A DNA stretch of 32,000 nucleotides from Nitrosopumilaceae archaeon (GTDB taxonomy: Archaea; Thermoproteota; Nitrososphaeria; Nitrososphaerales; Nitrosopumilaceae). The notes under the pieces were generated by a model that made no database searches, had not been told where the DNA came from, and was given only the letters and a program-made list of their open reading frames with translations. A program made the position numbers and the translations under genes. Shown piece after piece: positions 10,474-32,000 of the stretch (its first letter is position 1; each line of letters begins with the position of its first letter). The stretch covers positions 7,652 through 39,651 of the forward strand of contig DATKYM010000045.1 of assembly GCA_035528495.1 (NCBI GenBank), given 5' to 3'.

Positions 10474-10500
10474 ACATATCCTTCAAAATATTGTATAGAA

Positions 10501-10623: not shown

Positions 10624-11521
10624 GATGTTAAAGCATTATGAATTAACTAACCTAGATCAGGTATTCCATATCTGATTTAAGCAAGTTAAAATTTTAAAAA
10701 TAAAAAATTGAATTATTGGGGGTTAGAATACCCTCTTGTTGAAAAACTAATGACTCTATAAGGAATAACTATCGAAATTTTTTACATATGGTATGGGGAA
10801 TTCTTTTTTCAAATAATGAGTTAAAACCAGTAATTATTTTAATTGTGTTTAATGAAGATCTTTTCCTTAATTTAATTGAAAAACAATTTCGTTACAAATA
10901 CAAGGAATGAAAATAATGTAAAATAAATATTAATAATTTCAAAAATTAACTCCCAATATTAAAAACAAATTTTGACATTCTAAATATATGGATTAAATTA
11001 GAGGTAAATTCTTTTCTACAAATTTTAAATCAGTTTGAACAAACATTCAAAGTTTGGCAATCCTGCGCATTTTTTCATTCTACAACGATTCCTTAACAAA
11101 TTAATTAATTAAATTTTGTAACTGATAATAAAAGATCGATATTGAAACCAATTATAATATAATAATCACTGAGATGTTAAATTTTATTTTTCTAAATTTA
11201 AAATCCTTGTCATTAAATTACTTGCCTCGCAAATACGATCATAAATAATTCATAATATCAAAAAGATATCCAAAAAAGGATGATTTAAAAACTCTTATAG
11301 TTGTTTCTTCATGATGTGAGTTTTTATAATCATGTTTAAAGTATTTTTGATTAATGGATCCAAAATACCTATTCACTTTACCATTACATGATGTCAAAAG
11401 AAAAATTTTAATTTACTTGGATATTGAATTATTGGTTTTAATCGCACTCTGATCTCTTTTCTTTAAAATAAGTCCCATTAAATTTAATTGATCATGATTA
11501 AAAACTGATTGTTCTTGATTG

Positions 11522-11668
11522 TTAGATAGTAAATTTGTCTGGACATTCTACATGTTCGTAATGGTGTTCTGAAAATTTTTCTTGAACAACATAAATTACA
11601 ATTTTGTGCAATTCTTCCCCCTTGATCTTTTTGTTGCATTTAAGACATATTTTATTTGAATTTGTCAT
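11522..11668 (-). CDS. Unlisted 48-aa micro-ORF with N-terminal CxxC
   Basis: Hand translation: MTNSNKICLKCNKKIKGEELHKIVIYVVQEKFSEHHYEHVECPDKFTI. An overlapping 51-aa ORF in another frame (11484-11639) means coding status and frame are uncertain. Confidence 0.3.
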   Translation of the reverse strand: MTNSNKICLKCNKKIKGEELHKIVIYVVQEKFSEHHYEHVECPDKFTI

Positions 11669-11805
11669 TCGTAATTGCGATCTAAAATTCTAATCTATAA
11701 GGATCTACGATTAGCTCAATTTGAGTAAAACGAACTCATGTTATACTTTTTAGTATATCAAACGCCTAAAGCAAGGCAAAAATATGGTATAAAATCACGA
11801 TAAAT

Positions 11806-17602: not shown

Positions 17603-18400
17603 TTAGTTTATTGTCTGTAATCTTGGATGTAATACATGGTATCCATTTTCATTGAATCTTATTGGATAGGTTTGTTCACTGTGTTTTGTTCCTCTCATTT
17701 TAATAACCTGAACTGATCGTTCCATTGTATTTGTTTTTTGAACATGATTTAAAATTACAATTCCTGATGCTTCATACCATTCTGGGGGAGTTTTTGAATC
17801 TAAATTCTCTGAAATAAAAATTGACGTGCATTTTTTTTCATCTAAGGCGTGAATCAATTTTTGAATACCTTGGCGAGCATTAAATTTATTTCCATACTGT
17901 ATGCTTAAAACCGAAAGTGAATCAACAACAAGACGTTTGGCATGAATTTTTTTAATTCCTTGCAAAATTAATTGAGTCAAATGAGTAAATGGAAAAGGCT
18001 CTGTACCATACAAAGAATCTCCTGATTCAAACGTTTCATCATTCATTTTAAATGGTCGTGCATCAACTATCAAAATTTTTTCTTCATCCATCAACTTTTC
18101 AATATTCCATCCATAACTTCGAAAGTCATTAATCAGTTCTTGTGGGCTTTGTGTTAGAGTTACAAATATTCCTGGTTCTTCAAAATCTAGTGCGCCATTA
18201 TGAAGAAATTGCATCCCAAATGTTGTTTTACCACTCCCAGATTCTCCAGATAAGACAATTGTTTTTCCTTCTTTTAATCCTCCATCTATAATCAAATCGA
18301 ATCCTGGGATTCCTGTGCGAATCTTAAATTCCGAATTACTCACAATAACAAGCAGATAATTTTGTATATAAAGAGGTGTGAGTTTATCTGATATACACAT
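17603..18400 (-). CDS. Single-domain KaiC/RecA-superfamily ATPase (ArlH/FlaH-like class)
   Basis: TGIPGFDLIIDGGLKEGKTIVLSGESGSGKTTFGMQFL (Walker A) and Walker B-type RLVVDSLS. An internal GTG at 18341-18343 preceded by a TATA box is a likely true start (246 aa). Confidence 0.85.
   Translation of the reverse strand: MCISDKLTPLYIQNYLLVIVSNSEFKIRTGIPGFDLIIDGGLKEGKTIVLSGESGSGKTTFGMQFLHNGALDFEEPGIFVTLTQSPQELINDFRSYGWNIEKLMDEEKILIVDARPFKMNDETFESGDSLYGTEPFPFTHLTQLILQGIKKIHAKRLVVDSLSVLSIQYGNKFNARQGIQKLIHALDEKKCTSIFISENLDSKTPPEWYEASGIVILNHVQKTNTMERSVQVIKMRGTKHSEQTYPIRFNENGYHVLHPRLQTIN
18365..18372 (-). promoter_or_regulatory. Candidate archaeal TATA box (TTTATATA on the minus strand) for the KaiC-like gene
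   Basis: 21 nt separate the box from the in-frame GTG at 18343, which is the spacing expected for a leaderless archaeal mRNA. The box lies inside the longest-ORF N-terminus, which has no KaiC homology. Confidence 0.35.
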
Positions 18401-18423
18401 AAAAAAATTTTTCTAATTTGAAA

Positions 18424-19287
18424 CTAGAGTGGAATTGATTTAGATTTTGTCCATAACAAATCAAACAATAATTTTTTAGAATAAATCATTGCCGAAGAAT
18501 TTGTCCACATTGCAGATACATTCTCTTTTCCAGATTCAGAATTCTTCATAAAGAATAAAATCTCTTCATTGTCCTTTATGACAAAGCAAATAGAACCATC
18601 TTTAGTAGTTGGAAATTTTTTAACATTAGTCCTATCAATTTCATCGTAAACATATAGTGTTCTTTCTGAAGAGCTTGTTAGAATCTGTAAATCAATATCT
18701 GATTTATCCAAGGGCTCTAAAAAGTTAGCATGGTAAAACTTTAGAAAATCTTTCTCATTTCCAATTATTTGAAATCCTTTTTTGGTGTTTCTAATCATAT
18801 CATTTATTTTTCCATAAATTTGATTTTCTCCCTGTAACATTTGAAATTTATCTTCTTTATCAAGTTCAGGCTCATTGTGATAATTTGGTATTGTGTTCCA
18901 AAGTTTAGTAACCTCTTCTTCTTGTTTTTCTAATTTTCTAATTCGTTCTTTTTCAGTGTTGACCATTGATTTGATGGCACTGGATAATGACAATGCTGAA
19001 AATTTAATTGGATGCTGAAATGTTGCAGATACGATTCCCTTGTTTTGTAGGGTAGTTAGAAGATGATATGTCTCAGTTCTTGGAAGTTTTAAAGCTCGAC
19101 AAACCTCAGGTGCAGTTTTTGAGCCATACTTTCCTAAAAATATGTATACCTTGCATTGGTTTACAGTTAAACCAAATTTTGAAAATTGATCTTGTAGTTG
19201 ATCTATAGATTGTTTATGTTCATAAGAACTAGAATCTGGATCATTTTCAAATATCGTGGATTGGGCATTATCAGTCAATTCTTTCAC
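18424..19287 (-). CDS. TrmB-family winged-helix transcriptional regulator
   Basis: 287 aa. N-terminal FGLTVNQCKVYIFLGKYGSKTAPEVCRALKLPRTETYHLLTTLQNKGIV is the TrmB HTH, followed by a coiled-coil linker and a C-terminal effector-type domain. GTG start in the track. Confidence 0.8.
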   Translation of the reverse strand: MKELTDNAQSTIFENDPDSSSYEHKQSIDQLQDQFSKFGLTVNQCKVYIFLGKYGSKTAPEVCRALKLPRTETYHLLTTLQNKGIVSATFQHPIKFSALSLSSAIKSMVNTEKERIRKLEKQEEEVTKLWNTIPNYHNEPELDKEDKFQMLQGENQIYGKINDMIRNTKKGFQIIGNEKDFLKFYHANFLEPLDKSDIDLQILTSSSERTLYVYDEIDRTNVKKFPTTKDGSICFVIKDNEEILFFMKNSESGKENVSAMWTNSSAMIYSKKLLFDLLWTKSKSIPL

Positions 19288-19450
19288 TCCGAGTACAATC
19301 CAATATTCCTCTTTGATTTAGAGGGATCAAGTCAACTACCATTGAGTTGAATGATCGTAATGTTGCTTCTGCTTTTAAAAAAGAAGCGATTTTCAGGCCA
19401 AAAATTCTTTTTCTAGGCTTAATTTTGTTGTCTGATAAAATTATTTTCAT
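19271..19450 (-). CDS. Possible unlisted 59-aa ORF bridging the upstream gene and trmB-like gene
   Basis: Hand translation: MKIILSDNKIKPRKRIFGLKIASFLKAEATLRSFNSMVVDLIPLNQRGILDCTRSERID. Its ATG shares one base with the upstream TAA (TAATG at 19448-19452) and its end overlaps the TrmB GTG by 17 nt. Alternatively this 162-bp stretch is non-coding regulatory DNA. Confidence 0.25.
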   Translation of the reverse strand: MKIILSDNKIKPRKRIFGLKIASFLKAEATLRSFNSMVVDLIPLNQRGILDCTRSERID

Positions 19451-20034
19451 TATTCACATCCCACCGTTAAGATCGATTTGAAAGAAAATTTCTCTCGGAT
19501 AGCATCGGTTTTAATGAAGGCTAGCTCATAAGGGCCGTCATTTTGTTCATATCCAACTCCGGCTAATTCCTTTTTAATGCCTGATTTCATTAATTGTTCC
19601 AGACTGTCACGTATGTTCTTTAATCTCTCAGACTCTGCCTTCATACCTTCAAGTGATTTAAAGTATAATTCAAGCTCCCCTCTAGTTCCAATCCCATTGT
19701 AAAGATGTAATCCTTCATAATCTATCCAATTTTCTGATTTACCTTTTTTTGGTTTTCGCTTATTATCACTTTTTTTATCTGATTTCTTACTTTCTCTTTT
19801 TTTATTCTCTGATTTTTTATTATCACTTTTTTTATCTTTAGAATTTTCTGGATTTAATTTTTCTTTCAAATCAGATAATTCTTCAGAATTGTTTTGTTCA
19901 CCAACTCTAATTTTATCTCCAATTATTTTTGATTGTAAATTTATTTTCTCATCTAAATCTTTTATTCTTTCATCCAGAGACTCTTTTAGTTCTATAATTG
20001 AATTAAAACGTGATATTTTATTATTCATAATCAA
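19450..20034 (-). CDS. Hypothetical protein with central poly-basic low-complexity tract
   Basis: 194 aa. Tract KDKKSDNKKSENKKRESKKSDKKSDNKRKPKKGK flanked by helical regions. The track starts at TTG 20034, and ATG at 20028 is also possible (2 nt after the upstream TGA). Confidence 0.65.
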   Translation of the reverse strand: MIMNNKISRFNSIIELKESLDERIKDLDEKINLQSKIIGDKIRVGEQNNSEELSDLKEKLNPENSKDKKSDNKKSENKKRESKKSDKKSDNKRKPKKGKSENWIDYEGLHLYNGIGTRGELELYFKSLEGMKAESERLKNIRDSLEQLMKSGIKKELAGVGYEQNDGPYELAFIKTDAIREKFSFKSILTVGCE

Positions 20035-20591
20035 GATACCTCATTTATTCTTGTACTGTTTGGATTAGGTTGATTTACAATATTTTGATCAGAACTATTT
20101 GAAGAATTTTGATTAATAGAATTTTCGGAGGAGTCAGAAAGGTTACTATCATCATTTATTTTTTGGATTTTTTCTATTTTTCTGGTTACAGCCTTTAAGA
20201 ATGTGATATTTTTATTCTGAATGATTTTTTCGTTTTTGCATAATTCTATAATTGGTGTCATTGCATTTTTTAGAATTTGAGCAATGTTTTTAGTAGAGAA
20301 TTCATCTAATCTTTTTTGTATTACCTTACCGTTGGATTTCTTTATTACAATATCTAATGATGGTGTTAAAGTTATTTTGGTATTATCATCTTCATTGAAT
20401 ACTTTGGGCGGTAAATCTACAGAGAATCCTAAAAATTCAGTTATAATTTTTAAAGAGTTATACAGCTCGTCAATTACATTACCCTTTTCACTTTCTAACT
20501 CATAAATTTGTACAGATTCATCTACAAGTAAATCAGTATTCTTTAAAACCTCATCAAATTCTTTGATTTCAGCCTCATAACTTGGTTCCAT
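20031..20591 (-). CDS. Hypothetical protein (186 aa) with Ser/Asn-rich C-terminal tail
   Basis: ORF-track entry, tightly coupled to the next gene. No family recognised. Confidence 0.65.
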   Translation of the reverse strand: MEPSYEAEIKEFDEVLKNTDLLVDESVQIYELESEKGNVIDELYNSLKIITEFLGFSVDLPPKVFNEDDNTKITLTPSLDIVIKKSNGKVIQKRLDEFSTKNIAQILKNAMTPIIELCKNEKIIQNKNITFLKAVTRKIEKIQKINDDSNLSDSSENSINQNSSNSSDQNIVNQPNPNSTRINEVS

Positions 20592-20654
20592 TACAATAAA
20601 AGTTCAAAATTTCATAAAGAGTTTGGGTGTGTAAGTTCATGTTACAAACATCTC

Positions 20655-23111
20655 TCAAATCACACGCACGATTCCGATGTAGTTCGTATGGAGAAAAACC
20701 TGGCCTTCTGAATTATACCCGTCTAAAAATACATACATTCGATATCTCCCCTCTGGAACTAATTCACTTGAAACATTTCCAGGCTGTACACGGGGTCTAT
20801 CAAATTCAACTGCGACAGTATTGCCTACGGATATTACTGAACTATCTTGAGTTGGTCCTAAAGGTGTACCATCTGCAGTTATGATGAACGCCGCATAGGA
20901 TGCTGCAGAATTTTCATCTTCAAAAATTACCCTGCTCTGATATTTTATCCAATTGTCCGCAGGACCTGGATTAAATATTCCAATCACTCCTATGTCAGAA
21001 TTATCATATCCCCCATAACCTGCTATTCCTTTATCGGGGAATGGAATCTGAAGAAAACTACTTCCCAATCCAGACACCACATCGGTATCATCTATCACCA
21101 TTTTAAAGTCTAAATTGCCTATACTTTTTGGGATATTTGTCATTTGGATCATCAAGCGTTCTCCTGGGTCTATAACTCGTTGTTGAGTAGTAATTACAGT
21201 AAAATTAAACTGACCCCAAATATCACTAATGGGAGAAGAATACTCTGCAAAGTCACTAGAGTACGGGAATGAATAACTCAAAGTTTGTGTAATTATTTTG
21301 TCTGAGGCGCCAAGATCATTTCCAAATTCATCTACGATACTAATATCAAAATCTACAAGATGACTACTAGTACCATAATTTGTATTAAACAAATCCTCCA
21401 CTTCTTGTTGACCACTCTCATTCAAATCGTAATTATCCCAGTGAATTATATCATCAATCATACCATGAAAGCCATTAGTCAGAGGAGATATTGTAAATGC
21501 GCCAATGTGTATATTACCTGAGAGAACAATAGTTCCACTACCCGGGTTAGAGTCTTGATCTTGTAACACTCCATCCACATACAACTTGCAATCATTATCA
21601 TCGGGCATTACTGCAGCAAAATGGTGCCACGTATCATCCCTGTAATCTACTGCACTAGTACAAGTGGCAATGCTGGATGTAAAACTGGCATCTAATTGAA
21701 AAACCAAATTGCCACTTGGGTTTAGATAAATTTCAAAGCTATCAGTAATACCGCTGTTCTCTCCATAAAAAATTGTCTGAAAATCATTTGGACCTGTACT
21801 TTCTGCATTAAACCATCCTGCAGTGGTAGTAGGACTGGCATCAAGATCATTGTCATCATTTATACCAATCATTGCATATTGATTTCCTGAAAAATGATAT
21901 GCTCCGGCACCTTGATGTCCAGTTGGAATCCATAATGGTCTCTGAGAGCCAGAAGCCAAAGTCATTACCGTGTTTGTAGTAGTATCTAATGGAGAGTTTA
22001 GGTCACTTTCAAAATGATATGACATGGTTTCAGTTGTGTTTCCCGTATGTGTCAAAGATGGAGGCATTGGACTGCTGATGTATCTAAGAGTCGCATTCCA
22101 TTTTCCGGCAGGTATGTTGCTTGTCACATTTCCATCTGTATTAGAATAAAAAATTGGATCAATGAAGCTAAAATCAATAATTTCACCCACATTGTCTTCG
22201 GGAATAGATGCCCACATTTGACGTTGACCTAATGCATCAAAATTTTCTTTATGAAAAAATAAGATGTTATCAGGTGCAGAAGATGAGGTCAGAAATTTAC
22301 TTTCTAAAGAACTTCCGCTTTCCTCAGCAAATTCTACTACCTTGACAGATACTTCTTTAGTTATAGTATTTCCTGGTGCTCCGTTTAGGATACTTGCTTC
22401 AAACTGAATTTTATCTCCGTCATTTCCTGAAATTTTAAAGGTCCACTCAAAAATTGCAGAGTTGCCTTTTTCTAGTACAGGGTGAGGATCAGGCATGGAA
22501 CTCTCTAGCTGAGCTGTTGCGCCTAACGACGTTAGATTTAGAATTGGTTGAATATTTGTATAAATTGTGTTTTGGGTAGAATTATTTGTGACAGACAATA
22601 AAATAGTAGTTTTAAAATTGGTTGGGACTTCTTCAGGCAAGGCAAACAATTGTAAATTTAATGGATCAGTTGAAGCATTTACTGAAAATTCTTTTGTTAT
22701 TCCCCTATCTGTTACTAGTTTCATCTTATAGCTTTCCGTAGATAAAGCTGTAAATGGTAAAAATTGTAAAATATCCTCAACCATATTTCCTGGTGCCACA
22801 GTTTGGTTTAAATCAAATCTATAAACCTGGTCAACTCCAGTTACATTTTCTATCCATAACCTAGAAAAAGAAATTGGAATGTCTCCTGAATTATAAATAT
22901 CTAAATTAATTTTATTGTTTACTATTGTCAATCTAGAAATATCAAAGGACTCCTTTTTTCGATTTTCTCGTTCTTGTTCTGCTGCAATAACATTTTCTGA
23001 AAAATCTTCAAATAAATTCATGCTAGATGTCAGATAACTTGCCGCAGTAATTATTGCAATAAGAAAAAATACAGCTCCCACTACAGTTGACAGAGCTCTT
23101 CTTTGTTTCAT
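20655..23111 (-). CDS. Giant (818-aa) archaeal type IV pilin-like protein with internal LamG/concanavalin-A-like lectin domain
   Basis: N-terminus MKQRRALSTVVGAVFFLIAIITAASYL is a class III (prepilin-type) signal. Aa ~365-575 (nt ~21387-22019) carry Laminin_G_3-type landmarks: DDTWHHFAAVM, CKLYVDGVL, GNIHIGAF, FHGMIDDIIHWDNYDL. Many N-x-S/T sequons. ATGA overlap with the upstream small pilin gene. Confidence 0.8.
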   Translation of the reverse strand: MKQRRALSTVVGAVFFLIAIITAASYLTSSMNLFEDFSENVIAAEQERENRKKESFDISRLTIVNNKINLDIYNSGDIPISFSRLWIENVTGVDQVYRFDLNQTVAPGNMVEDILQFLPFTALSTESYKMKLVTDRGITKEFSVNASTDPLNLQLFALPEEVPTNFKTTILLSVTNNSTQNTIYTNIQPILNLTSLGATAQLESSMPDPHPVLEKGNSAIFEWTFKISGNDGDKIQFEASILNGAPGNTITKEVSVKVVEFAEESGSSLESKFLTSSSAPDNILFFHKENFDALGQRQMWASIPEDNVGEIIDFSFIDPIFYSNTDGNVTSNIPAGKWNATLRYISSPMPPSLTHTGNTTETMSYHFESDLNSPLDTTTNTVMTLASGSQRPLWIPTGHQGAGAYHFSGNQYAMIGINDDNDLDASPTTTAGWFNAESTGPNDFQTIFYGENSGITDSFEIYLNPSGNLVFQLDASFTSSIATCTSAVDYRDDTWHHFAAVMPDDNDCKLYVDGVLQDQDSNPGSGTIVLSGNIHIGAFTISPLTNGFHGMIDDIIHWDNYDLNESGQQEVEDLFNTNYGTSSHLVDFDISIVDEFGNDLGASDKIITQTLSYSFPYSSDFAEYSSPISDIWGQFNFTVITTQQRVIDPGERLMIQMTNIPKSIGNLDFKMVIDDTDVVSGLGSSFLQIPFPDKGIAGYGGYDNSDIGVIGIFNPGPADNWIKYQSRVIFEDENSAASYAAFIITADGTPLGPTQDSSVISVGNTVAVEFDRPRVQPGNVSSELVPEGRYRMYVFLDGYNSEGQVFLHTNYIGIVRVI

Positions 23112-23557
23112 GGCCCCATAACATACGTTTGATAGATAGATCCTTTTTCCGTTGTGACTGCAATTCGAATAGGATCAGTAGTTGTCCAATTATAAGTAAT
23201 TTCAGTGGAAAAATAATCATTACTTGCAATCCCGCCGTTTGTTATTAACAAATTAGTTTTATCTATAGAATTATCAAGAGTTATTTTTGTTACATTAAGT
23301 CCTATAGTTCCAACGTTGCTTGTTGTTACATTGATAAATTTAGTAGGATTGTTTCCAAACCAAACATTTTCTACAACTAAAAATTCATTTAATTTATTCA
23401 CCCCATCTGAATATGCCGTATTAATTTCCTGTTGCTCATTTGAAAATATGCTATTTGACCACGCAGTCATCATACTACCCATGACTGCGACTGCTGAAAG
23501 CAAAATCCCAGTAGTGACTACAGTAGCTAACGCTCTGCGTGTAGTGTGTTTAGGCAT
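23108..23557 (-). CDS. Archaeal type IV pilin-like protein (149 aa)
   Basis: MPKHTTRRALATVVTTGILLSAVAVMG is a class III signal with the same RRAL[AS]TVV core as the 818-aa protein, followed by a beta-rich body ending in VTTEKGS. Confidence 0.75.
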   Translation of the reverse strand: MPKHTTRRALATVVTTGILLSAVAVMGSMMTAWSNSIFSNEQQEINTAYSDGVNKLNEFLVVENVWFGNNPTKFINVTTSNVGTIGLNVTKITLDNSIDKTNLLITNGGIASNDYFSTEITYNWTTTDPIRIAVTTEKGSIYQTYVMGP

Positions 23558-23656
23558 ACAATAATGGCAAAAAATGCAATATTATCCATCGAGGTGTATT
23601 TTCAAAAACTTACAATTTTTGAAATAATTATTTTATTTATATAAAAAATGAGTTTT

Positions 23657-24469
23657 TCAACGTATTGAGAGCGAATTTTTATCCACATTCTCTCTGAACA
23701 AGCCTATTTGATTTGATAATCCATATGCAAACATGGTATAGGTCCATAAGAATAAAATTTCAACGATGTGTCCTGGATAGTAAATATTTTGAAGAGACAA
23801 GAATAGTACACTATTATCGCCAATTATCTGAGTAATTATTCCTAAACATAAAAGAGATATCATAAAATTTACACCTCCTTTAAAAAATAAAATAACGCCA
23901 ATCAAGGCAGGTATTAAAATAAGCGAATCTAAAATTGGATATGCCAGTAAGACTAGAAAATTCTCGTTAATTAAATCCGATTTAGAATCTAAAATCATCA
24001 TTAATGAGGGAATTAAAAGAGAGATTGAAACTGTTGACATCCCAACTAACATCTTTTTTGAAATTTGCTTTACAAATGGTCTTAAATAAAAAATAAGAAA
24101 TGCAAAAAATAGTTGATATCCAGTTATATAGAAAAAATCATCGGCATACTTCCAGGCATCAATTCCCAACATAACATTGTAAAACACATCAACAGTTTCT
24201 GCACAAAACCAATATGCCGAGAACAACATAAACAAAATCCATGCTTTTCCATGATTCCCCTTTAGACCATATTTTGAGACCATAAAAAGTGAAAAGATAG
24301 TTACAATGCTAGAAAGAACAATTGAAATTCCATTTGAAACATTTTCTGCTATTTCTGGACTCAAAAAATTTGCCAATAAAATTAATGCGGTTATTCCCAA
24401 CAAGGTAAAAAGAAGATATTCCTGAACATTAAATCCTTGATAGAATAATTGCAAAGGATTACCTCGCAA
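23657..24469 (-). CDS. Polytopic integral membrane protein (about 7-8 TM helices), unknown family
   Basis: 270 aa, almost entirely hydrophobic helices. Its start overlaps the stop of the AAA+ gene by 11 nt. Confidence 0.7.
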   Translation of the reverse strand: MRGNPLQLFYQGFNVQEYLLFTLLGITALILLANFLSPEIAENVSNGISIVLSSIVTIFSLFMVSKYGLKGNHGKAWILFMLFSAYWFCAETVDVFYNVMLGIDAWKYADDFFYITGYQLFFAFLIFYLRPFVKQISKKMLVGMSTVSISLLIPSLMMILDSKSDLINENFLVLLAYPILDSLILIPALIGVILFFKGGVNFMISLLCLGIITQIIGDNSVLFLSLQNIYYPGHIVEILFLWTYTMFAYGLSNQIGLFRENVDKNSLSIR

Positions 24470-25745
24470 TCTGTTCCAGGAAATTTTGGATTGGTTGAGA
24501 TGACATCATGTTTCCAAGATTTTTCTTTATAGAATCAACAATCGTAACATGTGCTGTTCCGTAAATATCTTTGAGAATTCTATTTAGGAATTCTGGCTCA
24601 TCATAACAATCAGCTAGAGTTCTGTTATAATCCGCCATTAATTTCTCTTTTACTTTATTTAGATCTGGTTTTCCAATTTCCAACAATGATTTTTCGATCG
24701 CTATTATGATGAGTTCCTTTGGATCATTACTTGTGGTAGTTACACCCCAATCAACTGAGGTAATGATTTTTCTTACCTCATCTTGAATTTCATAATCATC
24801 ACTAGTCATGGCAACTAGAGTCTCATTTCCGGCATCTAATGGCGATGCACCATCGGCAATTATTCTTGCCCAATTTGCCAGATCACCTACTGAAGGACCG
24901 TAAGGTAAATCGCCGTTTTTGTATTCTTGGCGTAATTTAGCTGCTACATGAACTATACTTGTTGCAGTATCTCTGGGAACTCCAGTACGTTCTAAAAGAA
25001 GGTTTATTTCTTTTTCATCTATATGATTGTCCACACTCATGTAGTCAAAGTTTAGCCAAACGCTCATTCTTCTTCTAAATGCAGCATTCAGTGGTTTAGT
25101 TCCTGTAAATTCAGAAGAGAAAGGATTCATACTGATAATCATGTATGCATCTTTGTGTCGATTAATTAGTTCATTATCTTTTTCATTTAATACCATATGA
25201 CCCCTAGCGTCCAAAATTGGGTTTAGTTTTGTGGCAACATCTTGTTTCATCATATTTGCCTCATCTAAATACAGTATTCCACCATATCTACACCAAGAAG
25301 TAATAATACCATCAATCCAATTTTCTTTTCCTAATCCTATGTAACGACCAAACAGATCATATGCGGATGTTTGTAAACCACAATTAATTTCCCACAATGG
25401 AAGCTGAGTTAGTTCAGCTACAAGGTAAACTATGTGCGTTTTACCTGTACCACTGGGCCCAATACATGCACATTGTTTAAAATATCCTAATGCTCTAACA
25501 ATTCTTTCTACATAATTCTGCCCATTATCATAAAATGGAGGAGTGTCTTGTGGAATCAACTCTTGCATATCTTCAGAGAAATTAAAATTATCTGGATTCA
25601 CATATTTTTTAATATCATAGGTGTGTAACTTCTTTGAATCTACTTTTTTATTTTTGGAAAAATTTATTTTTAAACTAAAATCATCATTATAAACTCTTGA
25701 TGTTTTAAGATTTTTTACATTACCCTCAGATGTGCTTGAAATCAT
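24459..25745 (-). CDS. MoxR-class AAA+ ATPase (AAA_5; CobS/NorQ/CbbQ-like) with N- and C-terminal extensions
   Basis: 428 aa. Walker A GPSGTGKT (aa 96-103), Walker B ILYLDEAN (aa 157-164), Arg-rich NAAFRRRM. Has a ~90-aa N-terminal leader and a ~100-aa helical C-terminal extension beyond the AAA+ core. Confidence 0.85.
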   Translation of the reverse strand: MISSTSEGNVKNLKTSRVYNDDFSLKINFSKNKKVDSKKLHTYDIKKYVNPDNFNFSEDMQELIPQDTPPFYDNGQNYVERIVRALGYFKQCACIGPSGTGKTHIVYLVAELTQLPLWEINCGLQTSAYDLFGRYIGLGKENWIDGIITSWCRYGGILYLDEANMMKQDVATKLNPILDARGHMVLNEKDNELINRHKDAYMIISMNPFSSEFTGTKPLNAAFRRRMSVWLNFDYMSVDNHIDEKEINLLLERTGVPRDTATSIVHVAAKLRQEYKNGDLPYGPSVGDLANWARIIADGASPLDAGNETLVAMTSDDYEIQDEVRKIITSVDWGVTTTSNDPKELIIIAIEKSLLEIGKPDLNKVKEKLMADYNRTLADCYDEPEFLNRILKDIYGTAHVTIVDSIKKNLGNMMSSQPIQNFLEQIAR

Positions 25746-25836
25746 AGAATTAATTTAAAATAAATATGTTAAACAAGAGAGATGTATTGTTATACTACAG
25801 ACAGGCTGTTAATTATGAATAATTAAGATATTAGTC
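25746..25836. promoter_or_regulatory. 91-bp divergent promoter hinge between the two arms of the filament locus
   Basis: Contains AT-rich TATA-like elements in both orientations: TTTATTTTAAA on the minus strand near 25757-25768, and TTAATTAT near 25809-25816, ~21-28 nt before the ATG at 25837. Assignment is by position only. Confidence 0.3.
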
Positions 25837-26373
25837 ATGAATCATGAGGTAGATGTATCTAATTTAATGTTCAATAAAACTGCCGAAAAAACCAGTTTTA
25901 AAAAATATGACATTAACGTTGATCTTGAAGAAGAATCCAGTGATGGTGAAAAAACGATTTTAAAGTATTCTCTAGATTTAACTTCAAATCCAAAAAATTC
26001 TGTCATCAATATAAGCGGAAATACAACATTATCTGGTGAAAAATCAGAGATTGAGGAATTTTTAAAACAAGAAAACGAAAAAACACCTGAAGTTGTATCT
26101 TTAATTTACCAGGAATTATTTCCATTAATGTATATAATTTCAAAGAATATGAAAATTCCATCACCATCTCATACGTTGTCACAAAATAATATTAAACAAT
26201 TCGATGAACAGAATAAAGATATAGATTCCAATGATGATAAACATGAATCAGTTGAACCTAAAAAAGAAAACGAAGAAAATCAAAATGATCAATTAAAAGA
26301 AGGACAATCAGAAATTGTAAAGGATACCACATCCATTGAAACAGAAGGGCAGAATAATGTTTCTGAAACTTGA
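25837..26373 (+). CDS. Hypothetical acidic protein (178 aa): ~115-aa folded-looking N-domain plus Asp/Glu/Asn-rich tail
   Basis: ORF-track entry, first gene of the plus arm, 9 nt upstream of the VWA gene. Confidence 0.6.
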   Translation: MNHEVDVSNLMFNKTAEKTSFKKYDINVDLEEESSDGEKTILKYSLDLTSNPKNSVINISGNTTLSGEKSEIEEFLKQENEKTPEVVSLIYQELFPLMYIISKNMKIPSPSHTLSQNNIKQFDEQNKDIDSNDDKHESVEPKKENEENQNDQLKEGQSEIVKDTTSIETEGQNNVSET

Positions 26374-26382
26374 TGATTTAAA

Positions 26383-27942
26383 TTGCAACAGACATTTCTT
26401 GACATAATCTATAAAATTTTCTATGAAACTGCCCAAAGAGATTTCAAAGATATTAGATTATTATTATCTGAAAAATTTTCTTTCCCTTCTATTAAATTTG
26501 AACCCATTATTGAAGTAAAAATCCCAATTCCAAAAAATACTGAATATGGGATAGTTTATGCAGGTTATTTATTTAAAAATTCTCAAGAAGGTTTAACAAC
26601 TGTGTGGAGTTTTTTTTTATCGACTGTTTATCATTTAGCAGCTCATGTTGCAGTCTCAAATTATTCTGTTTATAATGGTTGGATGAAAGATAAAACACCA
26701 AGATTAGCTTGGAAAGTTATTAATTTTATTGAAGATGATGCAGTTGAAAGGTATCTTTTTTCTACCAATCAGGATGTGTGGATCAACCTTTCAAAAATTA
26801 AAAATGAATATGCTAAACATAACAAATTTAATAAAAATCAATCTAAATTTGCTCTTACTTTAGGCCAAAAAACCAAAAACTCTATTAAAAATGAAATGAG
26901 TCAAGTTACTCTACAACAATTTGATAATGCAAGTAAAAATAATCAAATTCATTGGGCCTCAGAATTATACAAAAATAGATTTTTGTTTTCAGAAGACACT
27001 CCATTTTATTATGAACAAAATAATTACAATCAATCATTAATTTTAAAACACAATAAAATAAAGATATACCCCATTGGAAAATTTGCAAGTAGTGTTAAAA
27101 AATTAAATTTTTTATATCTTGAAGAAAAAGAAAGAATTCAAAATATAATACATAAACTTCGAAGAGATTTAAATGGTTTGAATTTTGAAGATATCGTTCT
27201 TCCAAATGAAGATATTTTCGAATATTTTAAACTCAAAGAGAAAAATAAAAAAATTCTTAAAAAAATTAGGGAGCAAATCAGAAGTGTTCTAAACAATTCC
27301 GAAGATCCAAATACAAACATGTACGGTGAAATAGATATGGAATTAGCAATTCAAGCAATAGCAAGTAATTCTCAAAATTATGCGGAGGTATTTAATAAAC
27401 TAGAAGAGCAGAGAATTGAAGAAACCTGGGGAATTCTTATTGATAATAGTGCAAGTTTGAAGTTGAGATTTGACCAAGTAAAAGATTTCATGCTTTGTCT
27501 TGCAGAAGCATCAGATGAATTAACTGGGCCTGCGGGGTCATGGGGTCTTTATAGTTATGATCAAAAATTTTCTATTTTAAAGGATCATAAAGGAAAATAC
27601 AATCAAGATTCTAAAGCAAGGATTGGAGGTTTGCATAGCGGGGGATTATCATATACATCTGATGCAATTTTATTAGCAGGGAGGATGATGGCCAAAACTC
27701 CTGCCGATCTAAAACATCTTTTTGTGTTTACAGATGATTTTCCTACCGGAGTATGGAATCAGGACCGCAAGCTGGCCCTTGCTGTAAAAGAAGTTGAAGG
27801 GATGGGAATAGAGACCATAGGAGTTGGTTTATCCCCTGGAATTTCAAAATATTTTAAAGATTCCTGTTGGGGAACTAATATTCGTGAATTAGTAGATGCC
27901 TTTGTGAAAGTTTATAGAATGAAATCAATGAAATCACTATAA
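26383..27942 (+). CDS. von Willebrand factor A (VWA) domain protein with intact MIDAS (CobT/NorD/CbbO-like partner of MoxR ATPases)
   Basis: 519 aa. C-terminal VWA with DNSAS (aa 354-358, nt 27442-27456), a downstream Thr in SYTSD and Asp in FVFTDD. No signal peptide or TM segment. The only nearby in-frame start is TTG at 26383. Confidence 0.8.
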   Translation: MQQTFLDIIYKIFYETAQRDFKDIRLLLSEKFSFPSIKFEPIIEVKIPIPKNTEYGIVYAGYLFKNSQEGLTTVWSFFLSTVYHLAAHVAVSNYSVYNGWMKDKTPRLAWKVINFIEDDAVERYLFSTNQDVWINLSKIKNEYAKHNKFNKNQSKFALTLGQKTKNSIKNEMSQVTLQQFDNASKNNQIHWASELYKNRFLFSEDTPFYYEQNNYNQSLILKHNKIKIYPIGKFASSVKKLNFLYLEEKERIQNIIHKLRRDLNGLNFEDIVLPNEDIFEYFKLKEKNKKILKKIREQIRSVLNNSEDPNTNMYGEIDMELAIQAIASNSQNYAEVFNKLEEQRIEETWGILIDNSASLKLRFDQVKDFMLCLAEASDELTGPAGSWGLYSYDQKFSILKDHKGKYNQDSKARIGGLHSGGLSYTSDAILLAGRMMAKTPADLKHLFVFTDDFPTGVWNQDRKLALAVKEVEGMGIETIGVGLSPGISKYFKDSCWGTNIRELVDAFVKVYRMKSMKSL

Positions 27943-28105
27943 ATTTGAAGATTTTGGATTAAATCATAAAAATATTATTATAAAATTCGGTTATTTCCAA
28001 TATTTTACCATTAAACTCCTATCTATCTCCGTGACCCTGAGTTTGTCTGTTCAAAAATATTACACATCAGATCCTATAACCTCATACTGTCATTTTATTT
28101 TAATA

Positions 28106-28774
28106 ATGAAAAACCACGTTTTCACAAAAAAGAGAAAAGGTATCAGTACAGTACTTACCACTGTAATTATCCTGGTAGCTTCGGTAGTTCTTGGTTCTGG
28201 TGTAGTGTTGTATGGAACAAGTCTGTTCCAAACAGTTGCCCAAGAAGAGAGTATCCAAGTACAGGGGATTCAGGTTTGGGTAAATGCAACTGATCCATTA
28301 GGTGATGCGTGGGGAGCAGCAGGTGTAAGAAATAACGGTGACAAGAACTTATCTGTAGACACCATCCACATCAAAGGTGTAACAATACCATATACAAACT
28401 GGTATTGGGATGCAGATCAAACAAGAGTTACCACCGATAACTGGCAAGCGAGCTTTGTTCATGAAGGTACTGCAGGTGTAGGAACTTTAATGAAAAACTC
28501 ACTAGAAGTGACAACTAATTGTTCCGCTTCAACAGTTACTACTTTGGAAATTGATTTTGATGGTGGTGTATCAAATCCAAATGATTCATTGGCCACTCTC
28601 TGTCTACAACAAGGTTCAGGTCCAGTAGGACTTAAACCAGGAGAGAGAGCAATTATCTACTTCCAAGTACCGCAAGAGAAAATCACAACACTTGATGCAG
28701 GAGCTGCAACAACGTTGAAGATATTTGCAGGAGAAGCAGGCGCTCCCCTAAGTACAATCATCCAAAACCCATAG
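28106..28774 (+). CDS. Archaeal type IV pilin-like protein (222 aa), candidate major subunit
   Basis: MKNHVFTKKRKG/ISTVLTTVIILVASVVLGSGVVLYG is a class III signal (basic stretch, Gly, then a hydrophobic helix). The track ORF from 28031 adds 25 implausible residues. Own 163-bp upstream region and a hairpin plus T-tract downstream. Confidence 0.8.
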   Translation: MKNHVFTKKRKGISTVLTTVIILVASVVLGSGVVLYGTSLFQTVAQEESIQVQGIQVWVNATDPLGDAWGAAGVRNNGDKNLSVDTIHIKGVTIPYTNWYWDADQTRVTTDNWQASFVHEGTAGVGTLMKNSLEVTTNCSASTVTTLEIDFDGGVSNPNDSLATLCLQQGSGPVGLKPGERAIIYFQVPQEKITTLDAGAATTLKIFAGEAGAPLSTIIQNP

Positions 28775-28810
28775 GGAGAGTGTTTTTTTGTATCTCTCTT
28801 TTTATTTTAT
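28774..28810 (+). terminator. Hairpin plus T-tract directly after the pilin stop (possible partial terminator)
   Basis: GGGAGAG (28774-28780) can pair with CTCTCTT (28794-28800; 5 Watson-Crick plus 2 G:U pairs) around a T-rich 13-nt loop, followed by TTTATTTTATT. Archaeal termination typically uses oligo-T tracts. Confidence 0.35.
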
Positions 28811-28825
28811 TCAGGAGAATGAAAA

Positions 28826-30376
28826 TTGAAATCTGTAAATGAAAATCAAATTGAACTAGGAGGTATTCTAAATCATGACCTGTTAGATGAAAGCACAATC
28901 AATAAAGTTTCAAATCAATTCAAAATAGTAAAAGAATATTCATTAAATGCACCATTTAGTTATGCAAAAATTTTATGGGATGAGAAAAATTCATATTTTC
29001 AGTATTTTGTGGATGAAATTAAATTAAATTTTGATGAAGAAAGAATTTACAAAGATTTGTACACCTTTGTAGAGGAGAGTTTAGATTCTCTTGAGACCAC
29101 AAAAGAGCAAAAATTTGATGTTCATTTAAACGACGTAATTAAAAAACATGAAATTTTTTTCACCTCAAATCCTATAGCGAGCATGGAAAAGGTCAAATAT
29201 TTTTTAAAAAGAGACATTATGGGTTACGGTGAAATTGACGCTTTAATGCATGACCCAAATATTGAAGATATTAGTTGTAGTGGCCCCAAAAATCCACTAT
29301 ATGTTTGGCATAGACAATATGATAGCTTGTCTTCAAATATCTCCTTTGAGTCACATCAAAAGCTAAATTCATTTATTACTCGTATTGTTTTCAAAGCAGG
29401 AAAACACGTCAGTACTGCCCATCCTATTTCTGACCTGGCAATTACTGGAAATCATAGAATCTCAGTATTGTATCAAAAAGAGATTACTCCAAAAGGGACT
29501 AGTTTCACAATCAGAAAATTCAAAGAGGATCCTTATTCAATAATTGATCTTATTGGATTTGGGACGATTGATATTGAAACTGCAGCATATCTCTGGATGT
29601 TGATTCAAGCCAAGATGTCAATAATGATAATTGGTTCTACAGGTAGTGGAAAAACAACTGTACTTAATTCAATTGCCGGTTTGGTAAGTGAAAATGATAA
29701 ATTATTTTCAGTAGAAGATGTAGCTGAAATTAATATACCACATGATAATTGGTTTTCACTTATTTCAAGATCAGGTTATGGATCAAATGATGAAGGTGAA
29801 ATTGGATTATACGAATTGATCAAATCTGGTGTTAGACATAGGCCAGACTACATTATTGTTGGTGAAATTAGGGGTTCTGAAGCTTATGTAATGTTTCAAG
29901 CAATGGCTACAGGTCATGGAGGCCTAAGCACTATGCATGCAGATAGTTTGGATTCTGCAAGTAAAAGATTACAACAAAAACCAATGAGTATACCGCCAGC
30001 ATATCTTTCTTTGATGAATTGTGCCCTGGTAATTAAAAGGGTAAAAGACAAGGTAACTGGGCAAAGTATGAGACGTGCAATATCTATTGAAGAAATATCT
30101 AGTAGTTCTGCTCCAAATTCAGTAACTACGTGGAACCCTAAATCCGATTATTTTGATCATTCTTTTAGTTCAAGTAAAAATCTTAAAAAAATTTCTGAAC
30201 AAACAGGTGATGAATTTAATGAGGTTTTAAAAGAACATCATAAAAGAACAAAAATCTTGAAATGGATGTCATCTAACAACATCCGAGAACATAAAAAAGT
30301 CACAGAAATGATTAGGAAATATTATAATGATCCAAAATCTGTCTTAAAAAAAATCAATTACGGGGATGAAGAATAA
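28826..30376 (+). CDS. Type IV filament assembly ATPase (archaeal PilB/FlaI-ArlI, VirB11 superfamily)
   Basis: 516 aa. Walker A IIGSTGSGKTTVLN, Walker B/Asp box PDYIIVGEIRGSEA, His box GHGGLSTMHA. TTG start at 28826, with no in-frame ATG for ~120 codons. Confidence 0.9.
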   Translation: MKSVNENQIELGGILNHDLLDESTINKVSNQFKIVKEYSLNAPFSYAKILWDEKNSYFQYFVDEIKLNFDEERIYKDLYTFVEESLDSLETTKEQKFDVHLNDVIKKHEIFFTSNPIASMEKVKYFLKRDIMGYGEIDALMHDPNIEDISCSGPKNPLYVWHRQYDSLSSNISFESHQKLNSFITRIVFKAGKHVSTAHPISDLAITGNHRISVLYQKEITPKGTSFTIRKFKEDPYSIIDLIGFGTIDIETAAYLWMLIQAKMSIMIIGSTGSGKTTVLNSIAGLVSENDKLFSVEDVAEINIPHDNWFSLISRSGYGSNDEGEIGLYELIKSGVRHRPDYIIVGEIRGSEAYVMFQAMATGHGGLSTMHADSLDSASKRLQQKPMSIPPAYLSLMNCALVIKRVKDKVTGQSMRRAISIEEISSSSAPNSVTTWNPKSDYFDHSFSSSKNLKKISEQTGDEFNEVLKEHHKRTKILKWMSSNNIREHKKVTEMIRKYYNDPKSVLKKINYGDEE

Positions 30377-31815
30377 TGTTATCAATAAATAAAATAAATG
30401 AAAAAAGTTTTGAGCATAAACAAGGGAACAAAATCAATGGGGAACTACCATATTTTATCACGATTGTGACCTTACTTAGCAGCGCTGGCCTTGGACCATA
30501 CTTTATGCTTCAGAGAGTAAAATCTATGGAACTCTTACCTACAATAAAAAATGAAACAGTAAAAATGCTAAAACGCATTGATCTGTTAGGCGTGGATCCT
30601 TTAGAGGTAATGCGCCAAGTAAGGACTCATTCTAGTTCAAAAGCCTTGGGAGAATTTTTTGACGGATATGTTTCAACCATAGAGAGTGGAGGAAATATTG
30701 TAAATTATCTAAAAAGTAAAATGAAAACAGTTTACGACAGGCATGCTGAATCCCAAAAGCAATCAGTGGTCAAGTTGGGTGCTCTTGTTGAGGCATACAT
30801 GACCATTCAAGTTGTTTTACTGGCAGTTTACATTATTGGGGCTGCTGTAATTTCAGATCCATTCAATGCATCTGAAACAGGAGTAAGTGCTGAATTGATA
30901 TTTTTAATTGTAACACCTGCAGTATCTGTCTTGTTTCTTTTTGCAGCTAATGCTAATTCTGTTTCAAAAAGTCCAGAGATAGATAAGAAAAAAATAATAA
31001 TTTTTGCTGCGCCTCCATTAATAGTAAGTGGAATTGTAATTGGTTTGAATTTATTTCCTTATCCTGTAATGAATCCCTATTTGCTAGGCGGAGCATTAAT
31101 TGCAGCCTCAATTGTACCGACGATTTATTTCAAAAAAGTGTATGCAATTACAATGGCATCAGAAGATTCTACTCCTAAAATACTTCGTACTATATCAGAA
31201 GCACGAAAGACCGGAATGAGTCCTGAAGGAAGTGTTATTCATGCATGTAAAAGAAAAGAATATGGTGCATTTGATCCAATCGCAAATGGGATAGCAAATA
31301 GGATAGAGTGGGGGGTTGATTTTAAAACTATTTTTCATTATCTACAAAAAGAAATTCAAACCTTTAATGTTTTGATTAGTTTCAATATTTTGTTTGAGTT
31401 AATTTCTGCAGGTGGGGGGAATTCAGAGACGCTTGATTCCTTAACTGAAACCAGTGAAAGACTACATGTAATCCAAAAAGAAAAACGTGAATTGCTTATG
31501 CCTTATTTGTTTGTTGGATTTATTTTAATGGGAACCACAGGATTTACAACTCTTTTAGTGATTGATTCCTTTGCAGACATCGAACAACAAAGTCGAAATT
31601 TATCGGAGATTGAGGAAGTGGTTGTATCAACCTCGTTAGGGTTGTATCCATTTATTGTGCTTATTCAGTCCTGGACTGCAGGTTTATTCCTTGGTAAGGT
31701 AATCAAGGGAGCATTTTCAGGAGGTTTCCTGTATTCTATAATACTCGTTATTATGACATTGATAGGAATAACCTTGGTTCAATTTTCAATAATAGATGTG
31801 AATTCATTATTCTAG
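30376..31815 (+). CDS. Type IV filament platform membrane protein (PilC/FlaJ-ArlJ/TadC family)
   Basis: 479 aa. Two repeats of a cytoplasmic helical domain plus TM helices, the T2SS-F-like layout. Its ATG shares one base with the ATPase stop (TAATG at 30374-30378). Confidence 0.85.
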   Translation: MLSINKINEKSFEHKQGNKINGELPYFITIVTLLSSAGLGPYFMLQRVKSMELLPTIKNETVKMLKRIDLLGVDPLEVMRQVRTHSSSKALGEFFDGYVSTIESGGNIVNYLKSKMKTVYDRHAESQKQSVVKLGALVEAYMTIQVVLLAVYIIGAAVISDPFNASETGVSAELIFLIVTPAVSVLFLFAANANSVSKSPEIDKKKIIIFAAPPLIVSGIVIGLNLFPYPVMNPYLLGGALIAASIVPTIYFKKVYAITMASEDSTPKILRTISEARKTGMSPEGSVIHACKRKEYGAFDPIANGIANRIEWGVDFKTIFHYLQKEIQTFNVLISFNILFELISAGGGNSETLDSLTETSERLHVIQKEKRELLMPYLFVGFILMGTTGFTTLLVIDSFADIEQQSRNLSEIEEVVVSTSLGLYPFIVLIQSWTAGLFLGKVIKGAFSGGFLYSIILVIMTLIGITLVQFSIIDVNSLF

Positions 31816-31883: not shown

Positions 31884-32000
31884 TTGAAAACTTTCTTTCT
31901 ATTATTGTTAATTGTAGCCTCCATAATTATGCCAAATGCATATGGGCAAGAACCAAAAAATTTTGGATATAAACAGTTGCCAGATAAATTAGTTGAAGGA
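31884..32000 (+). CDS. Partial CDS (5' end only): secreted/exported protein with Sec-type signal peptide
   Basis: From TTG 31884: (M)KTFFLLLLIVASIIMPNAYGQEPKNFGYKQLPDKLVEG, open to the window end. Signal-like h-region and an AYG/QE cleavage-type site. The start codon is uncertain. Confidence 0.35.
   Translation, partial: MKTFFLLLLIVASIIMPNAYGQEPKNFGYKQLPDKLVEG

Follow-up and report, generated by a model that had tools for sequence, protein, structure and literature searches.

Ammonia-oxidising archaea rank with the most abundant microbes of ocean and soil. Their type IV filament loci have been surveyed by Makarova, Koonin and Albers (2016), whose Table S4 gives for Nitrosopumilus AR1 and AR2 a series composed of TrmB, arCOG11968, arCOG11534, a 'FlaF-family' pilin of about 150 amino acids (aa) with a signal (arCOG01824), an arCOG03871 pilin, arCOG05517, a GvpN/MoxR ATPase (arCOG00441, about 340 aa), a vWFA protein (arCOG02900, about 516-520 aa), a pilin of about 210-225 aa and FlaI, followed in AR1 by TadC and an open reading frame (ORF) of 870 aa. 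In the tree of that survey the ATPases form part of subclade 4A, in which the thaumarchaeal clade is sister (support 0.892) to a Sulfolobales clade containing gi 70608025 of Sulfolobus acidocaldarius; from the order of gene identifiers, we take the latter to be the ATPase of the Aap pilus. The same source describes an additional S-layer-like protein or adhesin in thaumarchaeal loci and scores the MoxR/vWFA pair as strongly linked to them. Later, Abby et al. (2020) distinguished four pilus types in ammonia oxidisers, two of them 'adhesion-like', and a 2026 preprint deals with the classification of archaeal filament systems. Here, we analyse a locus of this kind found at positions 17603-31815 of a window, that is, the whole 32-kb stretch under study, from contig DATKYM010000045.1 of a Nitrosopumilaceae archaeon. 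We consider it likely that Nitrosopumilaceae inherit this type IV pilus locus vertically, as part of the chromosome, and that it belongs to the thaumarchaeal branch of subclade 4A and is related to Aap, with a filament that probably functions in attachment.

The ORF map and Pfam scans of the window proteins defined 13 genes in the locus (Table 1), including an assembly ATPase, a platform protein and three proteins with class III signals, and so agree with the initial annotation in that this is an archaeal type IV filament locus. That annotation also held that its accessory genes matched none of the named archaeal systems; this does not stand, because the same families are tabulated in nearly the same order for AR1 and AR2 (Makarova et al., 2016, Table S4), and the gene set was therefore already catalogued, though unnamed. 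By position and size, the 194- and 186-aa proteins would correspond to arCOG11968 and arCOG11534, respectively, and the 178-aa protein, by position, to arCOG05517. As far as the tables of that survey go, the subclade 4A loci of AR1, AR2, Nitrosoarchaeum koreensis MY1 and Nitrososphaera gargensis share with the window the gene families, with similar sizes, and a divergent promoter between arCOG05517 and the MoxR gene. They also share the placement of GvpN/MoxR and vWFA immediately upstream of the pilin-ATPase-platform genes (with the MoxR gene inverted in the window) and, on the other side and in the same order, TrmB, the two proteins of unknown function, the small and large pilins and arCOG05517. 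They differ in that the window and its close relatives (hereafter, the window's clade) have an inverted arCOG05517/MoxR block, a MoxR protein of 428 instead of about 340 aa and an added membrane protein of 270 aa; in addition, the KaiC and A24 peptidase genes at the locus edges are not highlighted in the part of the survey available to us. What is new here is the inversion in this clade together with its hinge, the fusion of the AAA+ protein accompanied by the gain of the membrane-protein gene, an 11-mer in the hinge, and the existence of a separable module, all of which are described below.

The genes are arranged in two arrays that diverge from a 91-bp hinge and are not interrupted by genes on the other strand, as originally proposed. 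The minus-strand array (25745 to 17603) comprises eight ORFs of 428, 270, 149, 818, 186, 194, 287 and 265 aa, and that on the plus strand (25837 to 31815) another five, of 178, 519, 247/222, 516 and 479 aa, with the only opposite-strand ORFs being short (60-85 aa) and nested inside larger ones. The 13 window proteins were all mapped to 80 genomic loci fetched around relatives of the ATPase (designated by L and a number). The full gene set was syntenic in about 33 of the about 35 loci having enough upstream flank, spanning Nitrosopumilus, Nitrosarchaeum, Nitrosotenuis, Nitrosotalea and the Nitrosomirales (L078), and the same architecture was present in the deeper-branching contig L085 and in L088. 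Within Nitrososphaeria, then, the two arms are not independently distributed, and their proximity is not an accidental juxtaposition. Two loci, L049 and L064, contain only the core, without the AAA+/VWA pair and the minor pilins; in a rough neighbour-joining tree, built with the fetched loci only, both nest among full loci, which indicates secondary losses.

Gene order in L088 is likely ancestral, with TrmB, the two unknowns, the large pilin, the small pilin and the acidic protein on one strand (KaiC being first in order, although not on that strand), and AAA+, VWA, pilin, ATPase, platform, an immunoglobulin (Ig)-like surface protein and the A24 peptidase on the other. Likewise, outside the window's clade the AAA+ and VWA genes are neighbours sharing a strand, with the acidic-protein gene divergent from AAA+. 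In the window's clade, the two-gene block of acidic protein and AAA+ is inverted, and the hinge moved along with it. The two-armed layout emphasised in the initial annotation is thus present in the window, but it is specific to this clade, resulting from the inversion, and not a general property of the locus.

The assembly ATPase shows the T2SSE domain (PF00437, 130 bits) and a GSTGSGKTT Walker A motif; in comparisons with solved structures it matches Archaeoglobus GspE (2OAP) over its full length with an expectation value (E) of 6e-97, and FlaI with E 1e-64, and it scores 355 bits against the curated FlaI model, whose cutoff is 550. Its identity is 85-95% with proteins from Nitrosopumilus/Nitrosopumilaceae metagenome bins and about 60-65% with those of Nitrosotalea, Nitrosarchaeum and Nitrosotenuis. 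The T2SSF domain (PF00482, 53 bits) appears in two stretches of the platform protein, which has about 7-8 transmembrane segments and matches the curated models of UpsF (E 2e-22) and BasF (E 6e-21), both under their cutoffs. The coupling of both genes through a TAATG overlap at 30376, part of the first description of the locus, is evident in the ORF map.

No A24 prepilin peptidase was found by Pfam scans within the 32-kb window, as first reported, although the corollary that the enzyme must be encoded elsewhere was not supported. The window ends 185 bases past the platform gene, and the translation of 31884-32000 shares 90% identity over 39 aa with the N-terminus of an 821-aa protein from the close relative L054, which contains a Sec-type signal, a Big_1 domain and a C-terminal anchor. 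In L054, the platform gene is followed by the gene for this Big_1 protein, a response regulator gene on the opposite strand, a second TrmB gene and a gene for a 228-aa A24 peptidase (PF01478, 30.5 bits; PF06847, 36.3 bits; both exceed the Pfam cutoffs). All six clade members with enough downstream sequence have the peptidase gene about 3.9 kb beyond the platform gene, and a peptidase gene occupies this position in more than 40 loci overall. Because the tail of the window encodes the same next gene as L054, and the peptidase follows in the relatives, we infer that for this genome, too, the A24 peptidase is part of the locus and is cut off by the end of the window.

A search for a FlaFind-type motif plus a hydrophobic stretch selected exactly three out of 421 start-codon candidates in the 32-kb window, corresponding to the 222-, 149- and 818-aa proteins that had been singled out from the beginning as bearing class III signals. 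All three contain a single N-terminal hydrophobic segment and have strongly conserved N-termini (30-50 orthologues each). The 222-aa protein, whose start at the ATG in 28106 is the choice of gene callers, has a predicted cleavage site between KKRKG and ISTVLTT, and its mature N-terminus (…IILVASVVLG.GVVLYGTSLFQ) is nearly invariant in about 50 orthologues. It matches the UpsA model under the cutoff (E 5.5e-10) and is kept in the core-only loci; it is the probable main subunit of the filament.

The 149-aa protein is predicted to be cleaved between RRA and LATVVTT, and the profile of its family matches, over the full length, the solved pilus subunit of Pyrobaculum calidifontis (8FK7, E 1.5e-5). 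It also gives a weak match to UpsA, and only 20 bits, for a cutoff of 110, with the ArlF model. Judging from these matches, this is a pilin and not a stator protein, and probably a minor pilin. The absence of FlaF/FlaG-type genes stated in the initial annotation needs qualification, because the 149-aa orthologues are filed in a FlaF-family arCOG and the protein has this weak ArlF match, even if 8FK7 is matched better. For the 818-aa protein, cleavage is predicted between MKQRRA and LSTVVG; the N-terminal part is pilin-like, with an UpsA-like N-terminus (E 2.6e-4), and residues 410-559 form a concanavalin A-like lectin domain (Laminin_G_3, 61 bits). Orthologues range from 408 to 1057 aa, and the ensemble fits what would be expected of a modular, fast-changing adhesin. 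The stop of the 149-aa gene overlaps the start of the 818-aa gene by 4 bases and, in the mapped loci, the small- and large-pilin genes always travel together. As a side observation, L029 (17397-18600) and L034 (7602-8900) have this pair at another place, downstream of the platform gene, and in Nitrosotalea loci (L018 and L020, for example) it keeps its place but is inverted.

The hinge contains a core with the structure TTAAC-N2-CCTGTCTGTAG-N7-ATACAT, with CCTGTCTGTAG located at 25795-25805 on the minus strand and flanked by two TATA-like boxes, each about 25-30 nt from its start codon. The central ca. 45 nt are nearly invariant within the window's clade, and the same element also appears between the acidic-protein and AAA+ genes of distant lineages, its orientation changing with that of the genes. 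As an exact 11-mer, CCTGTCTGTAG is present a single time in the whole window and, in 25 loci, a single time in each, invariably in the hinge. We regard the element as a candidate operator, on which the TrmB-type regulators may perhaps act.

The AAA+ protein is a MoxR-class ATPase, with matches in residues ca. 1-331 to PF07728 (AAA_5, 74 bits) and PF08406 (CbbQ_C, 51.5 bits), and its closest solved structures are CbbQ (E 9e-25) and NorQ (E 1.5e-19). A special link to eukaryotic midasin was considered and discarded, because the 152-bit match in the PDB is the sum of several modules, the best single one reaching 46.8 bits versus 90.6 bits for CbbQ. Direct searches of Pfam, NCBIfam and PDB sequences did not detect a VWA domain in the 519-aa window protein, which we identified as a VWA protein from its homologues and a structure model. 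A database protein with 100% identity (P0121) carries a weak match to PF13519, and relatives carry PF00092 and PF11775. Residues D354, S356, S358 and D451 of the MIDAS (an adhesion site dependent on metal ions) are invariant in 30 homologues, although no conserved position stands out in this 30-sequence alignment as the MIDAS threonine. The model (predicted local distance difference test, pLDDT, 82.6; predicted template modelling score, pTM, 0.80) has its best fold matches with NorD in NorQD complexes (E 1e-9), followed by the MIDAS domains of Rea1/MDN1. Separately, the N-terminal domain of this protein (residues 84-118) contains a YHLAAH...EDD motif, with H88, E117 and D118 invariant and H84 near-invariant, that is shared by the VWA homologues from Nitrososphaeria, Bathyarchaeia and others; these residues may constitute a metal-binding site.

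The pair therefore resembles NorQ/NorD and CbbQ/CbbO in the combination of AAA_5 and CbbQ_C in the AAA+ protein, in a partner with a C-terminal VWA domain and MIDAS residues and, in most lineages, in the adjacency and co-orientation of both genes. It differs from them in being located inside a pilus locus; in the window, moreover, the two genes are on opposite strands with the acidic-protein gene in between, and the AAA+ protein has an additional C-terminal domain. The NorQD complex remodels a membrane enzyme from the cytoplasm: a finger of the NorD VWA domain occupies the AAA+ pore, and acidic residues of the target are engaged by the MIDAS site or a linker. By analogy, the pair studied here could act as a cytoplasmic remodeller.

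The additional domain of the AAA+ protein is a clade-specific acquisition. Outside the clade, the open frames for AAA+ are of about 337-358 aa, and only within it do they extend into a helical domain of ca. 85 aa (residues 343-428; 24459-24719). This fused domain shares 34% identity (E 4e-17) with the C-terminus of the locus's response regulator (L054, 15546-15800) and 37-43% with stand-alone ORFs of ca. 95 aa (e.g. L062, 20758-21045), which in L015, L062 and L066 are found directly upstream of genes homologous to that of the 270-aa membrane protein. We also observed that a DCY[DE]xPE motif is conserved in the three settings of the domain, that is, as an AAA+ fusion, as a response-regulator output and as a free ORF. 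The top Pfam match is NitrOD5 (PF11537), a Death-domain-like output domain according to Galperin et al., with sub-threshold scores (cutoff, 27 bits) of 19.8 bits for the AAA+ C-terminus and of 17.4 and 20.5 bits for response-regulator C-termini. A firm assignment to NitrOD5 was rejected since these matches are sub-threshold and the stand-alone copies gave no NitrOD5 match in Pfam; we tentatively regard the fused domain as NitrOD5-like. The 270-aa membrane protein, with no family match in Pfam or the curated models, occupies this position only in the window's clade and is absent from it in distant loci. The fusion and the co-acquisition of its gene suggest binding of the helical domain to the 270-aa protein and tethering of the AAA+ protein to it in this clade.

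Homologues of the accessory genes also occur away from pili. Four Bathyarchaeia contigs (L083, 6800-12500; L084, L086 and L087) contain a cluster of AAA+, VWA, both unknowns and TrmB, with identities to the window proteins of 62% for AAA+, 27% for VWA and 32% over 259 aa for TrmB, and hhalign probabilities of 98.8% (E 1e-16) and 96.9% for the homologues of the 194- and 186-aa proteins, respectively. We found no T2SSE, T2SSF or pilin gene within 8-10 kb of this cluster, which has cysteine desulfurase/NifU genes directly upstream and sugar-nucleotide biosynthesis genes nearby. Considered together with the core-only loci, the stand-alone cluster in Bathyarchaeia indicates that the pilus locus is composed of two modules able to exist apart. 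The long-kept interleaving of both in Nitrososphaeria nevertheless argues for a functional link there. It is possible, if rather doubtful at present, that the AAA+/VWA pair, the two unknowns and TrmB are an autonomous ancient module that ammonia-oxidising archaea recruited as an ATP-driven controller of the pilus and that, in the window's clade, became tethered to a membrane protein via the helical domain. Such a controller could remodel the platform/ATPase complex, gate the incorporation of the lectin pilin or drive disassembly, and would be a kind of pilus control without a described counterpart.

The separability of the modules also raises the possibility that two independent systems merely lie side by side, with a pilus core (pilin, ATPase, platform, surface protein, peptidase and the minor-pilin pair) on the one hand and the AAA+/VWA/unknowns/TrmB module on the other, the latter being dedicated to a task unrelated to pili, e.g. 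metal or cofactor insertion as in other MoxR/VWA pairs. This would be in keeping with the clusters devoid of nearby pilus genes, beside cysteine desulfurase/NifU and sugar-nucleotide genes, in the four Bathyarchaeia contigs, with the lack of the module in L049 and L064, and with the fact that characterised NorQD- and CbbQO-type pairs are chaperones of metalloenzymes or Rubisco. We consider it unlikely, however, because in Nitrososphaeria the minor-pilin pair sits between the halves of the module, and this interleaving survives inversions and persists in several taxonomic orders (about 33 of 35 loci, with L085 and L088 in addition). Moreover, neither the window nor the related loci examined contain a gene for a metalloenzyme or Rubisco target, including nitric oxide reductase, and the link of the MoxR/vWFA pair to these loci was independently scored as strong by Makarova et al. 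(2016).

The preferred interpretation, a type IV pilus of the subclade 4A/Aap branch, relies for that relation on the published tree, as applied to orthologues identified by synteny. With the Aap pili of Sulfolobales the locus shares the ATPase, the platform and PilA/arCOG03871-type pilins, and the thaumarchaeal ATPases are sister, in the tree as published, to the clade taken as Aap. Unlike Aap, the locus has the AAA+/VWA pair, a lectin-bearing pilin, the acidic protein, two unknowns and TrmB, KaiC and response-regulator genes. Ups pili and the Bas bindosome (Sulfolobales, subclade 4I) have the same core architecture and supply the best sub-threshold matches (UpsA for the pilins, and UpsF/BasF for the platform), but the scores are far under the cutoffs and the published tree places in their subclade other thaumarchaeal ATPases, namely paralogues from AR2 and N. 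gargensis.

Alternatively, the filament might be a short pseudopilus whose role is to position or export surface proteins, e.g. the Ig-like protein, in the manner of the Sulfolobus bindosome. The sub-threshold matches of the ATPase to BasE (225 bits) and of the platform to BasF (75 bits) point in this direction, as do the gene for a large secreted Ig-like protein, which always comes straight after that for the platform, and the S-layer/adhesin-like extras that Makarova et al. (2016) list for thaumarchaeal loci. Yet these Bas scores fall far short of the respective cutoffs (1000 and 1300 bits) and do not stand out from those for FlaI/UpsF, being weaker or similar, and the published tree groups the orthologues with the clade taken as Aap and not with Ups/Bas. 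Additionally, the 149-aa family matches a genuine filament subunit, and the motif scan of the 32 kb did not reveal any substrate-binding protein with a class III signal, all of which makes a pseudopilus very improbable.

A motility organelle, either an archaellum or a rotating archaellum-like filament, is barely credible: the related ATPase (named 'FlaI' by some sources) and platform, N-terminally similar filament proteins, a KaiC-superfamily ATPase (as is ArlH) at the locus edge and the weak ArlF match of the 149-aa protein, with orthologues in what Table S4 calls a FlaF-family arCOG, have to be set against the lack of ArlCDE/X and of any match to archaellin ArlB or ArlG in the window proteins (Pfam and curated models), scores well under the cutoffs for ArlF (20 vs 110 bits), ArlH (27.8 vs 215) and FlaI (355 vs 550), an ATPase that is closer to Archaeoglobus GspE than to FlaI, and the separate archaellum locus of swimming ammonia-oxidising archaea.

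Several points still weigh against our interpretation as an Aap-related pilus with an associated remodeller. The relation to subclade 4A/Aap depends on the published tree, on orthology established by synteny and on the identification of gi 70608025; every pilin family match is under the curated cutoffs; and the A24 peptidase of this genome is deduced from relatives. No AapX-like Fe-S (iron-sulfur) protein is apparent, in that the locus ORFs and the downstream genes of L054 lack any Fe-S/radical-SAM-type (S-adenosylmethionine) domain. Finally, there are cores without AAA+/VWA (L049, L064) and modules without a nearby core (Bathyarchaeia), so that coupling between both is not obligate.

Under the pilus interpretation, the A24 peptidase would cleave the three prepilins after [KR][GA], and the ATPase hexamer and platform would polymerise the 222-aa protein as the main subunit. 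The 149-aa and the 818-aa lectin pilins could be incorporated as minor or tip subunits conferring binding, probably to glycans, with the Ig-like surface protein encoded next being a putative co-expressed component of the envelope. The AAA+/VWA pair would be an ATP-driven cytoplasmic remodeller whose MIDAS, by analogy with NorQD, might grip an acidic residue of its target, for which the platform, the ATPase and the acidic protein are candidates. Expression would be controlled by two TrmB-type regulators, the KaiC-like ATPase and the response regulator, with the hinge element as a candidate operator.

This is the most widely conserved non-archaellum pilus system of ammonia-oxidising archaea, and it bears on how these organisms attach to particles, to each other and to partners. 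The value of the window does not reside in the discovery of a system, but in providing three handles on it: the operator-like element, the link between the AAA+ fusion and the membrane protein, and the separable module. The main question it raises concerns the role of a NorQ/NorD-type remodeller within a pilus locus; if the MoxR/VWA pair acts on the pilus machine, this class of chaperones would extend past the activation of metalloenzymes and Rubisco.

Table 1. Genes and other features of the type IV pilus locus, with their positions in the 32-kb window.
Feature	Position	Strand	Evidence or remarks
Single-domain KaiC-like ATPase, 265 aa	17603..18400	-	PF06745, 195 bits
TrmB-family transcription regulator, 287 aa	18424..19287	-	PF01978, 44 bits, and weak TrmB C-terminal domain
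Cytoplasmic protein of unknown function, 194 aa	19450..20034	-	Synteny in all full loci
Cytoplasmic acidic protein of unknown function, 186 aa	20031..20591	-	Synteny in all full loci
Modular pilin/adhesin, 818 aa	20655..23111	-	Class III signal; Laminin_G_3, 61 bits
Small pilin, 149 aa	23108..23557	-	Class III signal
Polytopic membrane protein, 270 aa	23657..24469	-	About 6-8 transmembrane segments
MoxR-class AAA+ ATPase (CbbQ/NorQ type), 428 aa	24459..25745	-	AAA_5, 74 bits; CbbQ_C, 51.5 bits
Divergent promoter region (hinge), 91 bp	25746..25836		Conserved element CCTGTCTGTAG
Acidic cytoplasmic protein, 178 aa	25837..26373	+	Always divergent from AAA+ gene
Cytoplasmic NorD-like VWA protein, 519 aa	26383..27942	+	MIDAS residues; NorD fold match
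Probable major pilin, 222 aa from ATG at 28106 (247-aa open frame)	28106..28774	+	Class III signal
Type IV filament assembly ATPase, 516 aa	28826..30376	+	T2SSE, 130 bits; GSTGSGKTT
Polytopic platform protein (FlaJ/TadC/UpsF type), 479 aa	30376..31815	+	T2SSF, 53 bits
Start of secreted Ig-like (Big_1) surface protein, ca. 820 aa	31884..32000	+	Gene runs past window end

Among the putative regulatory proteins, the KaiC-like ATPase matches KaiC structures with E 1e-53, and only reaches 27.8 bits with the ArlH model (cutoff, 215); its gene adjoins that of TrmB in about 11 distant loci and in L088, and its product is a probable regulator. The position of the TrmB gene is conserved across the mapped loci. 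The stop of the 186-aa gene overlaps the start of the 194-aa gene by 4 bases. The 194-aa protein consists of a coiled coil, a basic linker and a C-terminal domain, without Pfam matches for the window protein or for each family member; the 186-aa window protein likewise lacks Pfam matches, and neither one produced a meaningful profile match in the PDB.

The 178-aa acidic protein has a conserved N-terminal domain of 117 aa and a variable acidic tail; it shows no family match, its family profile found nothing in the PDB and its AlphaFold model is poor (pLDDT 57). A SecB-like fold, prompted by an LFP-containing helix, was evaluated and is not supported, being at most a weak lead: Foldseek matches, many of them to SecB or SecB-like proteins, had E 0.04-0.5 and template modelling scores of about 0.3, and hhalign against E. 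coli SecB gave a probability of 0.1. The acidic tail (window, 26190-26373; L081, 6953-7609) varies among near-identical strains, with proteins of 178, 198 and 218 aa, and in one variant an additional stretch of ca. 20 aa repeats the adjacent NQNDQLKEGQSEIVKD, in what looks like a tandem duplication.

The locus is flanked by housekeeping genes, including purE/purK-like, threonine-dehydratase-like, ArgZ-like enzyme and cobalamin adenosyltransferase genes and a tRNA-Phe, and guanine-plus-cytosine (GC) content is even, which indicates that this is not a mobile island. An Rfam scan of the window retrieved a single tRNA and nothing else, and a scan for bacterial-type promoters and terminators gave counts equal to or lower than in shuffled sequence, being uninformative, as expected for an archaeon. 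A class III nucleotidyl cyclase gene (9455-10243; Guanylate_cyc, 52 bits) is followed downstream by a 1.5-kb AT-rich stretch (10244-11805; GC about 0.26) that contains neither ORFs of at least 80 aa nor Rfam matches. Some 14 kb to the left of the locus, positions 597-3984 of the minus strand contain genes for an OB-fold/zinc-ribbon protein, a thiolase-like protein, a luciferase-like oxidoreductase and a nucleotidyl transferase. In L062 the same four genes are directly downstream of the A24 peptidase gene, beside those for the free helical domain and the membrane protein, and this different location points to a larger rearrangement in the lineage of the window.

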